Shown here one piece after another: positions 1 through 3,000 of a DNA stretch of 64,000 nt. The first letter of the stretch is position 1. Each line of letters opens with the position of its first letter. Location: sequence record NZ_CP110904.1; one strand, given 5' to 3'. Position numbers: made by a program. This DNA comes from a plasmid.

Positions 1-3000
1 CTTTTACGTTTACTGCAAACGAGCGTAAGAATTCAGTTGCAGCTCTGCGTCCGCCTGCTGTTGCAGCACGTCCATCACCCGGCTGAGCATGGTCAGCGCC
101 TGGGAGGGGGAGCCGCCAAAAGTCACTTTAATTTCGTTGGTGGTGTGGTGCTGCTCCAGATCGAGAATATTCACTTCCACGTCTTCGCCCTTCTCATCCT
201 TCGCCGTACACTGAATGCTGACCCGGGTCACAGGGTCCTTAACTGTCTGCAATGGTGCCTTCGTGCTGACGTTGATCGCGATATTCTTCATTACCCTGTT
301 TCTCCTTGACCTGTGGTGGTAACCGACCCTACCGGGTGGAGGGTCGGTCAGAAAATCATGCCTGGCCCTGTTGCTGCTTTTCGGCATGCTTACGCAGGTA
401 CTGCGTGAGATTGCCGTGGGCTTCACAGATGGCATTCATCTCATCATTGGTCAGCACTAAGGTGTACGTATCGTCGCTGAGGTTCTTAGCGGCACGTTGT
501 TCTGCTTCTTCCGCAATACGCGAAAAAAGCGGGATTGCCGTGTCCGCAATCGTCGTCACGGTCTTTTTGTTGAGTACGCTGGAGACCGATACAGTTTTAG
601 GCTCTGGCGTTTTGATCGGATCTTTCGCCTTCGGCTCCGGGGTGTTTTCCGGAGTTGGCTCCGGGTTGGTCCCAACATTCCCGTCCACCAGCTGCGGCGG
701 GGTGGTCTCATCCGTAGTACCTTCGACGGATGTTTGTTCCGTCACGGTGGTTTCAGGGGTGTTTGCGTTCGTTTCCTGCACGACCGGCGCTTTCGGCTGC
801 ATGGCTGCATCAATTTTGCCAGCTTTGACGAATTTAAGGGTTTTGGCCGTCGCCTTGCCATAGACGTCGATGGCTTTGGTGATATTATTCACGGCCTTAT
901 CGCCGCTGTAGAGATATTCATCCAGCGCGACATACATGCTCACTTCCCCTGTCACCAGCATAACCTGGAGGGCTTCAGGCAGGTCCAGGACGCGAACCAT
1001 CTGACGCAGGTGCTGTTCTGTTTTACCGCGACGCTTGGCCAGTTCTGCGAACGTTTTAGGTTCTTCAGCATCTTCGACCATCCGTTTGATGGAGAGCGCC
1101 TCAGCCACGACAGACAGAGCCAGATTAGAGTTACCGTCCAGCGTAAACTGTTCGGCACTGGCGCGGCTACCGCGAAACTCCTCGCAGCGAATTAACGAAA
1201 TCAGTTCACGCCCTTCCTCTGCCAGCTCGATGTTTGCCATAGCGGCGGCGCGGATACGACATGCCCCCTGACGCAGAACAGGACGACCATTCAGAACCTG
1301 CACGACGATAGCTGGTACGCTTAAAGGCTCAGACTTATAGGACTCTTTAAGACTGTTCAGGTGGGCTACCACGTGGGGTAAGGAGTAGTAGCTTTCTCCC
1401 ATGCCAGCGGTACGGGTGTTAAAACCTTCTTCCTCTTCGACCACTGCCGGGTTGATGACCAGACCATTGCTTTTGCGTGCGCCGTTACCGGAACGCTCCA
1501 GGTAAGTGCGCAGGCTGATATCGTTGTTAGCGGTTTTTACATCATTTTCGATAGTGGACATTGTGGCCTTCCTTTTAATTTTTCGTTTAGGGTGGTTGTT
1601 CGCTACAACACAACAATACCAGGTTCGATTCATTTCCTAATAACCTGAGGCGAAAAAAAAAGTAACTTTTTTTCCCGGGGTAATAGTACGTGATCCGTCC
1701 GTTTTAATTTTTCGCTAAGGAGGCCAAATTTAACTTTAGTGTGAAATCGGGTACCAAAAAGCCGGAATTTATCGAAAAGTTACTTTTCCGTCTGCAAGAA
1801 CCCACAATAATGCAGATCCGTCAGCATGAAAGGTGTGACATGCGCTGAAGGGAAGATGAGTAAGAGGGGAACTGCGGCGTCACACGGCATCTAAAGTTAC
1901 TTTTCCAAAATATGGAATGGCAATCTATCTATCGCTATAAAGGAATAACCGGGATCACTGTCGAACATCTCAACGCGGGGCAGGTAGAATGAGGGAATTA
2001 AAATCGGGCCAGGCTAAATCTGCCCGACCATCGGGAAAGGATACGGCGGCATGGGTCTTACACGAGATAATGCGAATGTATGGTCTTTTCCGGTTGCGAC
2101 TGTTGGGTTTCTTTCTCACCTGTGGCTAACCGTCGGTATTCGGCGTCACAAAACATCCGTAAGTTGGTAAAGACTTTCTCCATAAACTCAGCGTGAGCAA
2201 ACGACTCACCCGGGGATTGTGTACGTTCTTTCATACATTCCTTTTTAATCATGTCGACACCTTCGGCACAGGTTGCAGCGGGTACGTCAGCGGGTCACCA
2301 GCTGGCGCTGATAATTCGTGAATCCGGAATAGTATTCTACCCTGTTCGCATGCCACATCTGGTCGATAAGCGGGGAATTTCAATCCTATATTGAACCCAG
2401 CGACCACCGCAGGGAGAAGGGGCACATGACTTGTTTGTCCGTCCGGTCTCGGCATAAGGAGCGAGCCATGAGCAAAGAGACTCTGTCACTGGCAACCCGT
2501 TACGCGGGCAACTCCTCTGTGATTTCGGAAATGCAGACAGCGCTGGACGTAATGCCGCTGGTGACGGAAGCCGTTCAGAGCGTGTGCGAACGGGTTGAAT
2601 GTGAGCCCACTGAATTTCTGGACGCGATGGCGCTTGTAAAACGTTTCCTGCTGGCAAAACAAGATGAACTCCGTGCGGAAAGCGTTTCAATCCGCAAGCA
2701 GCTGGGTGAGATGGGGGAATAATGATGATTAAGTCTACTATCAGCAACGATGCGCTTCGCACCCGTATTCAGGCGCTGCGTAAAACCAGTGCAAACACCC
2801 TTGTCAGCACGGCGAAATTCGACGCTGATGCGCTGGAGGACCTCCTGCGCCTGCGTACCGCAGTGAAGCTGAGACGAGTACACGTGGTCCAGAGTGGCAC
2901 CTGCGACTGCGAGGAGCCCTGTGAATGCATGCCCGGGCTGTATGTAACCGTCGACTCCGGCGTGGGTCACGGCCAGGCGGTCTGGACTTACCGGGACGAC

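Follow-up and report, generated by a model that had tools for sequence, protein, structure and literature searches.

Upstream of the gene for an orphan ParB-fold protein, called P1 here (401 amino acids; 356-1561, minus strand), a stretch of 64,000 nucleotides of plasmid DNA (record NZ_CP110904.1; hereafter the window, whose coordinates are used unless record positions are named) carries three copies of one palindrome between 1657 and 1905. What is such an array for? An earlier note on this DNA had proposed either a centromere-like cluster or an autoregulatory array of the kind used by KorB, with further copies dispersed in promoters. The reading that we favor, while giving it no better than an even chance, is that the trio forms the autoregulatory operator and loading array of P1, a KorB-like orphan regulator that would bind the palindrome. 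A role as the partition centromere of the plasmid is not supported.

Whole-replicon counts were made on the Citrobacter freundii plasmid pCF_324-2 (CP078021.1, 258,843 bp), which was assembled from six pieces. Window position 1 corresponds to record position 194,600 of CP078021.1, with 100% identity over the initial 6 kb and the final 24 kb of the window; traD and other Tra1 genes directly precede the window. MOB-suite types pCF_324-2 as an IncHI1B replicon with a MOBH relaxase and MPF_F, which places it in the IncHI family. Among its close relatives is NC_019360.1, which we take to be pNDM-CIT of the IncHI3 group. The IncHI2 plasmid used for comparison is NZ_OQ420469.1, in which the P1 orthologue is 64% identical, and DNA similar to the P1 upstream region is found in more than 1,200 PLSDB records.

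Three perfect cores precede the P1 gene

The palindrome has the core AAAGTWACTTT, the most over-represented 10- to 12-mer of the plasmid backbone. This core is present 42 times in perfect form on the whole plasmid. It is invariant in all 42 copies, positions +/-2 being G/C, and the information extends to +/-7, which gives the 15-mer GAAAAGTWACTTTTC. A longer motif with CCGG flanks was ruled out, as the symmetrized count over the 42 sites is informative to +/-7 only. In the window, 14 perfect cores are present, and the 15-mer is matched with at most two mismatches at 14 loci, compared with 0.26 expected from shuffled sequence.

All three copies upstream of P1 have the perfect core. The proximal copy (1657-1671, core 1659-1669; plus-strand sequence AAAAAGTAACTTTTT) has two mismatches to the 15-mer and is centred 103 bp upstream of the start codon of P1. 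The second copy (1774-1788, core at 1776; plus-strand sequence GAAAAGTTACTTTTC) is a perfect 15-mer centred 220 bp upstream of the start, and the distal copy (1891-1905, core at 1893; plus-strand sequence CTAAAGTTACTTTTC) is centred 337 bp upstream. From start to start, the spacing is exactly 117 bp and 117 bp, so that the three copies reported earlier stand and their spacing of about 115 bp needs a small correction. Similarly, the region is non-coding, as had been claimed, but the gap between coding sequences spans 496 bp (1562-2057) rather than 420 bp; the sequence records place no annotated feature in it. We ruled out a tandem duplication as the origin of the trio, because the three 117-bp units align at the motif and have nothing else in common.

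Besides the palindromes, the only conserved element of the P1 upstream region is a promoter-like block at 1683-1707 (minus strand; TTAAAACGGACGGATCACGTACTAT), which is unique in the window. It includes the -10-like hexamer TACTAT (1688-1683), which precedes the proximal copy by 13 nucleotides. In the alignment of IncHI1, IncHI2, and IncHI3, the block is kept as TTTAAAACGGACGGATC..GTA.TAT, together with the sequence of the presumed 5' untranslated leader of P1 (1562-1656, minus strand). The P1 start at 1561 is conserved in the alignment as well and is preceded by AGGAAGG. A structured leader RNA was ruled out, its predicted fold being no better than that of shuffled sequences (z +1.05), and an Rfam search of positions 1-6500 of the window gave no match.

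The palindrome accompanies the P1 gene across lineages

We compared P1 lineages that are 100, 91, 89, 64, 62, 47, 46, and 35% identical, taken from plasmids and metagenomes. In every orthologue lineage retrieved, the 900 bp upstream of the P1 gene contain one to six perfect cores, and these cores persist even where the remaining upstream DNA cannot be aligned. For six of the seven inspected lineages, a -10-like hexamer (TACTAT, TAGTAT, TATTAT, TATATA, or TAAAAT, depending on the lineage) precedes the nearest core by 12-23 nucleotides. The orthologous position of the proximal copy is perfectly kept in IncHI1 and IncHI2, and a second site is also present in these and other lineages at a comparable distance from P1. 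The distal copy is found in some close lineages (L139, L140, and L142) and is degenerate in IncHI1.

In the recognition helix of the P1 helix-turn-helix (HTH), H184 and R186 are unchanged wherever a P1 lineage shares the motif, and both are replaced in P2, a second ParB-fold protein encoded near the other end of the window. Near the gene for the ParB-like protein of IncC, which is 32% identical to P1 over the N-terminal half, no such motif was found. When one genome per species was scanned for the motif pair, most matches were unrelated repeats of other phyla. The enterobacterial matches examined were IncHI-type DNA, one chromosomal match (L097, Enterobacter sp.) being left unexamined, and the scan yielded no case that parts P1 from the rest of the backbone.

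P1 resembles KorB at the level of fold

P1 belongs to a small family whose members are labeled "DNA-binding protein" or "hypothetical"; the named ones are all from Enterobacterales, and many are encoded on large contigs or plasmids. The full HTH that had been noticed in P1 is confirmed by Pfam, where it reaches 23.6 bits with PF17762 (HTH_ParB; cut-off 22.6), and the P1 profile matches the HTH of Spo0J/ParB with an E value of 5e-5. TIGR00180 (parB_part) scores 31.6 bits, under its cut-off of 58.45. In the AlphaFold2 model, built with 22 homologues, the confidence measure pLDDT exceeds 90 over most of residues 20-240, which comprise the N-terminal domain and the HTH; a disordered linker (250-328) and two C-terminal helices of modest confidence follow. 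A Foldseek search with this model gave KorB of RK2 as the best match in the Protein Data Bank (PDB; 8qa9_B, E 7.9e-8, TMt 0.62), further matches being ParB-CTP (cytidine triphosphate) clamps, Noc, and sulfiredoxin. By sequence, P1 and KorB are less than about 20% identical and give E values of 0.64 with phmmer (HTH alone) and 0.42 with the profile. The N-terminal domain is highly divergent and recognizable at the fold level only.

The ParB-box that had been attributed to P1 is confirmed in part only, as it is in register but reads G99-A-C-R-I-R104 rather than GERRxR. Both a full-length alignment with Bacillus subtilis Spo0J and a comparison of the family profile with Helicobacter pylori Spo0J place GACRIR (99-104) on GERRxR. 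The Box III region is G143-N144-S-N-L where ENLQR is expected. Across the P1 family, the Gly, two Arg, and the Asn of these elements are invariant, and the Glu, one Arg, and the Glu and Arg of Box III are missing. The phosphate motif of KorB, GARRYR, also lacks the Glu; KorB needs R117 to bind CTP, and hydrolysis and gate closure depend on N146 (PMC11790492). By motif register, R102 and N144 of P1 are the counterparts of these two residues. Since GACRIR resembles GARRYR and both counterparts are invariant in the family, CTP-dependent sliding by P1 appears plausible by analogy.

Conserved copies are dispersed over the IncHI backbone

The earlier note had further suggested that the palindrome is dispersed in promoters beyond the P1 gene. 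This is supported on the scale of the whole replicon. All 42 cores lie on the backbone (record 1-67 kb and 150-259 kb), spread across 176 kb of the plasmid, and none of them falls in the 83-kb resistance and transposon region (67-150 kb). The P1 trio is the only three-site cluster of the plasmid and its densest. Going by the annotation, intergenic and intragenic sites each make up about half of the 42, the latter being located, for example, in rsp, trhN, trhI, trhR, and traD. In the window, 9 of the 14 sites are intergenic although 25% of it is non-coding (P = 0.002), the distance from an intergenic site to the closest start codon being 54-350 bp.

The IncHI2 plasmid has 48 perfect cores, and many of them occupy the same places. 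For 24 sites, the +/-200-bp flanks could be aligned across the site between IncHI3 and IncHI2 (66-81% identity). The ten fixed bases are kept at the orthologous IncHI2 position in 20 of these sites, 18 of which are perfect cores. Flank identity predicts about one such site, and control 11-mers were fully kept in 37 of 639 cases (5.8%; binomial P ~1e-21). Intragenic sites in traD, rsp, trhI, and trhU are among the conserved ones. Because several conserved sites fall in coding sequences, selection acts on the DNA site itself. In the Tra regions of distant IncHI-like elements from Klebsiella grimontii and Photorhabdus, the motif is found in the rsp-trhF and trhR-mobI regions. The trhR-mobI intergenic region of pCF_324-2 (record 178908-179402) contains two cores, as does the matching region of the distant K. 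grimontii IncHI-like contig (L042); we take this region to be the expected place of the origin of transfer (oriT) in MOBH elements.

Of the dispersed window sites, six intergenic cores precede annotated genes at known distances. They are located at 3465-3475 (95 bp upstream of a DUF5417 gene), at 21396-21406 (54 bp upstream of the gene at 20853-21347, minus strand), at 32475-32485 (199 bp upstream of the gene at 31904-32281, minus strand), at 35362-35372 (a perfect 15-mer in a divergent intergenic region, 137 bp upstream of the gene at 35504-36280, plus strand), at 43931-43941 (350 bp upstream of the RepB-family initiator gene at 44286-45167), and at 53349-53359 (182 bp upstream of the DUF4165 gene at 50716-53172, minus strand). 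The core at 22677-22687 lies within a PAPS-reductase-family gene, and the orthologous IncHI2 position reads AAAGTAGCTTT. The core at 41707-41717, within another DUF4165 gene, is kept at the orthologous IncHI2 position, and the one at 54975-54985, within a gene for an immunoglobulin-like repeat protein, keeps all ten fixed bases there.

Two further cores lie in annotated coding sequences after -10-like hexamers. The core at 16134-16144, within a hypothetical gene, has TATTAT ahead of it on the minus strand with 9 nucleotides between, the same layout as at P1. The core at 61349-61359, which is 74 bp inside the coding sequence annotated at 60607-61428 (minus strand) and is kept in IncHI2, has TTATAT nearby ahead on the gene strand. 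These sites may mark mis-annotated coding-sequence starts or internal promoters.

The second RepB-family gene of the plasmid has a core at record 898-908, 22 bp past its stop codon. Because cores adjoin both RepB-family genes, replication control may belong to the same network. Downstream of a RepB-family initiator gene, eight copies of GCATTTGCATGA are present at record 1575-2054, mostly 43-44 bp apart with one wider gap, in an iteron-like arrangement. These repeats next to repB and the CTTAATCGCCAGC array next to parA, described below, are likewise over-represented on the plasmid but were set aside: they are unrelated to the palindrome and lie outside the window.

A candidate mechanism and the points against it

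That P1 is the binder, that it represses at its own promoter, and that it uses a nucleotide are steps that we infer. In this account, dimeric P1 would recognize the 15-bp palindrome through its ParB/KorB-fold HTH. The proximal copy, 13 nucleotides past the -10-like hexamer, would cover the likely transcription start, and since it overlies that start, bound P1 would hinder its own transcription, giving negative feedback. The two upstream copies may raise local occupancy or permit cooperative bridging or looping. The roughly 40 further backbone copies would be the plasmid-wide targets of P1 at promoters, in the trhR-mobI and rep-adjacent regions, and inside tra genes; since the palindrome is kept at these positions, P1 is probably a plasmid-wide regulator of the KorB type. 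P1 may also be loaded at its sites in the form of a nucleotide-gated clamp and exert its effect from afar, and such clamp loading would explain both the intragenic sites and the variable promoter distances. The support for a KorB-like autoregulatory array, as first proposed, is circumstantial: an array before every orthologue, a site close to the -10-like hexamer in most lineages, dispersed conserved copies, and KorB as the best match of the model.

A wider form of this account, which we consider possible but would not expect to hold in full, is that IncHI1, IncHI2, IncHI3, and the Klebsiella HI1B/FIB plasmids share an undescribed, ParA-free master control. Here, a P1 clamp at 40-50 palindromes would silence or de-silence genes for transfer, replication, and establishment, and P2, with a shifted specificity, would add a second layer.

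Several observations weigh against P1 as an autoregulatory repressor. About half of the sites are intragenic, which a plain operator model does not explain. A simple sigma-70 scan called no canonical promoter in the P1 upstream region, so the putative placement of an operator over the start site depends on the -10-like hexamer. In one lineage (L152), the sole upstream site lies 275 bp from the P1 gene. Helical phasing is not a conserved feature and was ruled out as one, because the spacing between the first two sites differs between lineages (117, 118, 127, 122, and 102 bp). On the protein side, the missing Arg of the phosphate motif and the missing Glu and Arg of Box III make nucleotide binding by P1 uncertain, and its N-terminal domain was not detected by sequence against either Pfam (ParBc) or the PDB. 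Lastly, orthologues of TrhR and HtdA and a second ParB-like match, taken as P2, are present in all motif lineages. Because these proteins accompany the motif everywhere, co-occurrence cannot single P1 out as the binder, and as a test against TrhR and HtdA, both present in every lineage, it was uninformative.

Alternative explanations

This last point leads to the most serious competitor, which we nonetheless consider unlikely, namely that another plasmid factor (P2, TrhR/TrhY, HtdA, or an unrecognized small regulator) binds the palindrome and that P1 is the most tightly controlled member of its regulon. TrhR, HtdA, and the presumed P2 share the lineages of the motif, including Klebsiella plasmids at about 29% identity. 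Sites occur in tra control regions, in trhR-mobI, and upstream of trhF and of htdT, and the same Tra regions carry sites in K. grimontii and Photorhabdus. Moreover, TrhR/TrhY and HtdA are known tra regulators for which no binding motif has been published (PMC7366339). However, Pfam shows no recognizable DNA-binding domain in TrhR, TrhY, or HtdA, and the motif reaches well past tra, to rep-adjacent regions and the many small genes of the window. The densest cluster, furthermore, fronts P1, which is the usual signature of autoregulation.

P2 is a second orphan ParB-fold paralogue (384 amino acids; 58253-59407, minus strand), which shares 35% identity with P1 across the N-terminal domain and the HTH, and TIGR00180 scores 23.1 bits on it (cut-off 58.45). 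Two features weigh against P2 as the binder: its recognition helix differs, reading SSTTIAAL where P1 has SEQHLRQM, and its own promoter has a different conserved site. This variant palindrome (59490-59504; AAAAAGGTACTTTTG on the plus strand, AAAGTACCTTT on the gene strand) has one core mismatch and lies about 90 bp upstream of P2. It is invariant in IncHI1, IncHI2, and IncHI3, with a TAGTAT hexamer about 30 nucleotides after it, and is otherwise rare, with one more copy on the plasmid and one on a Klebsiella locus (L005). The P2 gene is divergent from a Dam-family methyltransferase gene and lies upstream of a DUF4942 gene.

Alternatively, P1 may bind the palindrome but act in the manner of VirB or BisD, as an anti-silencer or activator that relieves silencing by H-NS/Hha, in which case the array would provide positive feedback. 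We regard this as rather improbable, although VirB-like anti-silencing is a live alternative because homologues of H-NS and Hha are encoded by the IncHI2 relative. Like VirB and BisD, as these are reported (PMC10770331, PMC12409273), P1 has the ParB fold and stands alone with no ParA, and IncHI conjugation is H-NS dependent and thermoregulated (PMC7366339). Intragenic sites, sites at varying distances from genes, and the lack of a strong predicted sigma-70 promoter at P1 would also suit such a mode of action. Conversely, the proximal site past the -10-like hexamer takes a position typical of repression, which is a weak argument, the site flanks are not markedly AT-rich (39-58% GC compared with a window mean of 49%), and the closest structure, KorB, is that of a repressor.

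It is far less probable that the trio is a parS at which P1 forms a partition complex, to be moved by a ParA from another part of the plasmid. A palindrome cluster beside a ParB-family gene does look parS-like, and KorB unites partition and regulation (PMC11790492). The window has no parA, as the earlier note had stated: no KGGxGK[ST] is present in any frame, and the own ParA of the plasmid has no tblastn match in it, which leaves 64 kb on this side of P1 with no parA. A search of the rest of the replicon, as that note had advised, found a ParA (417 amino acids), but it is already paired with its own ParB (PF08775) at record 14,280-16,534. Directly upstream of parA, at record 13,466-13,978, lies a tandem array of 9.5 units of 54 bp containing CTTAATCGCCAGC, which is likely the true centromere of a type I partition locus; the whole-plasmid core map places no palindrome cluster at the parA/parB locus. 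A ParM locus is located at record 19,782-21,519, in agreement with the double partition modules of R27.

The plasmid has two dedicated partition loci outside the window and probably a different centromere there, which counts against the parS-like part of the original proposal. In addition, the sites are scattered over the backbone instead of being concentrated, and a scan of the P1 protein for the ParA-binding motif [LFI]G[KR]G[LFI], as defined in PMC12704722, did not find it. There is also an IncHI2 plasmid, the 170-kb Escherichia fergusonii p18B226LT1 (NZ_AP028816.1; typed non-mobilizable), that matched the P1 protein search through P2 only; because of this, P1 may be dispensable for maintenance.

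Lastly, that a host protein (nucleoid-associated or a chromosomal transcription factor) binds the palindrome, or that the palindrome works without a protein, for example in replication priming or in recombination, is very unlikely: the outer G at -7 and C at +7, together with the 15-bp length, recall what we take to be the Fis consensus, and the sites cover the whole backbone, but the invariant core with G/C at +/-2 is unlike the presumably degenerate sites of Fis, the motif matches no Escherichia coli factor consensus known to us, the enterobacterial matches examined (L097 aside) are IncHI-type DNA, and the motif string was in no relevant paper found. Fis was ruled out as the binder on the degeneracy of its sites, and a plasmid Tus-like protein because a palindromic fork barrier at 42 places would presumably be harmful.

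Surroundings of the P1 gene

The neighbors of P1 are small hypothetical genes. Directly after it, 65 bp away on the same strand, is a gene for a 93-amino-acid protein with no family match (10-291, minus strand). It follows P1 in IncHI1, IncHI2, and IncHI3 only and is missing behind more distant orthologues, an absence that rules it out as an obligatory partner of the KorA kind. On the other side, a terminator-like hairpin (2007-2029, minus strand) stands 3' of the small upstream gene at 2058-2234 (minus strand) and would isolate the P1 control region from upstream transcription.

Farther into the window, at 5366-6121, a gene for a Hok-family type I toxin adjoins relBE, a toxin-antitoxin pair of type II. 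The relBE part, the sole match of the window to the phage collection, shares 99% identity with a stretch of Escherichia phage PhiR42_1. From 11700 to 34700, a long run of co-oriented small genes on the minus strand includes DUF905-, DUF957-, and DUF3085-type genes, an HNH nuclease, the PAPS-reductase-family gene, orphan methyltransferases, and a RES/Xre pair. This run recalls what we understand to be the anti-defense and establishment islands of plasmid leading regions.

Significance

The large plasmids of the IncHI family are widespread and bring multidrug, colistin, and carbapenem resistance to Salmonella, E. coli, Klebsiella, Enterobacter, and Citrobacter. No DNA motif has been defined for the regulators known from them, H-NS/Hha, TrhR/TrhY, and HtdA. 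A sharp 15-bp site in 42-48 copies, kept at the same positions despite a flank identity of about 70% and always stacked before P1, therefore gives experiments a way into the control of transfer, replication, and establishment across the plasmid. If P1 binds it, P1 would be a natural ParB-family regulator wholly separated from partition, and the theme of KorB, VirB, and BisD would extend to a major plasmid family. Full-text literature was searched for the motif string, for the R27 regulators, and for IncHI together with either ParB-like or KorB, which returned no description of the site or the protein; most subscription journals were not covered, and an older account may exist. We would class the system as a hitherto undescribed variation on the theme of KorB/ParB-like regulators in a clinically important plasmid family.

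Comparison with known systems

KorB of RK2 is the closest known system. Its operator, OB, is TTTAGCSGCTAAA. KorB and P1 share the ParB fold, a phosphate motif with no Glu, and a long flexible linker ahead of the C-terminal domain. OB and the P1 motif are both palindromes of odd length that are present in many plasmid copies, near to and far from promoters and inside genes, and each has a site at the operon or promoter of the regulator itself, although the regulatory effect of P1 is predicted from sequence. KorB has been shown to load at one place and to exert its effect at a distance from it (PMC11790492). RK2 has 12 OB sites, according to an entry in the reference list of the same paper, compared with 42-48 sites on IncHI plasmids, about half of which are intragenic. 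The differences are substantial as well: sequence searches fail to link the two proteins, whose similarity is at the fold level; neither parA (incC) nor korA lies next to the P1 gene, and the protein lacks a canonical ParA-binding peptide; its recognition sequence is another one; its predicted C-terminal region consists of two helices of modest confidence; and partition is supplied by two separate loci.

The Spo0J/ParB, P1 ParB (the partition protein of that name, not the protein studied here), and SopB systems have palindromic sites clustered by the gene, as at the IncHI P1 gene. Unlike these ParB-parS systems, the IncHI protein has neither a partner ParA nor a ParA-binding motif, its GERRxR is degenerate, its TIGR00180 score is below the cut-off, and its sites are dispersed.

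VirB, from the virulence plasmid of Shigella, and BisD, from ICEclc, are reported to be stand-alone ParB-fold proteins of mobile elements that bind inverted repeats and regulate at a distance (PMC10770331, PMC12409273). P1 would fit the same description, being an orphan ParB-fold protein on a mobile element with inverted repeats of a cognate type upstream of candidate promoters, and IncHI plasmids are under H-NS control, as is the plasmid system that hosts VirB. In contrast, P1 has no sequence tie to VirB or BisD beyond the fold, its motif has far more sites, which are conserved inside genes, and the position of the proximal site suggests repression.

Noc, one of the structural matches of P1, is likewise an orphan ParB paralogue with a palindrome scattered over the replicon, including intragenic copies. 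However, Noc belongs to the chromosomal proteins of Firmicutes and anchors DNA at the membrane, whereas the P1 motif clusters at the promoter of P1 itself. Finally, HerB (YfjB), encoded in the leading region of the F plasmid, is likewise ParB-like, orphan, and carried by a conjugative plasmid, and it combines a CTP-binding domain with an HTH (PMC13370423). HerB has 652 amino acids and two extra domains and binds the host chromosome, and no consensus motif was found for it (PMC13370423), whereas P1 has 401 amino acids and is accompanied by a sharp motif on its own plasmid.

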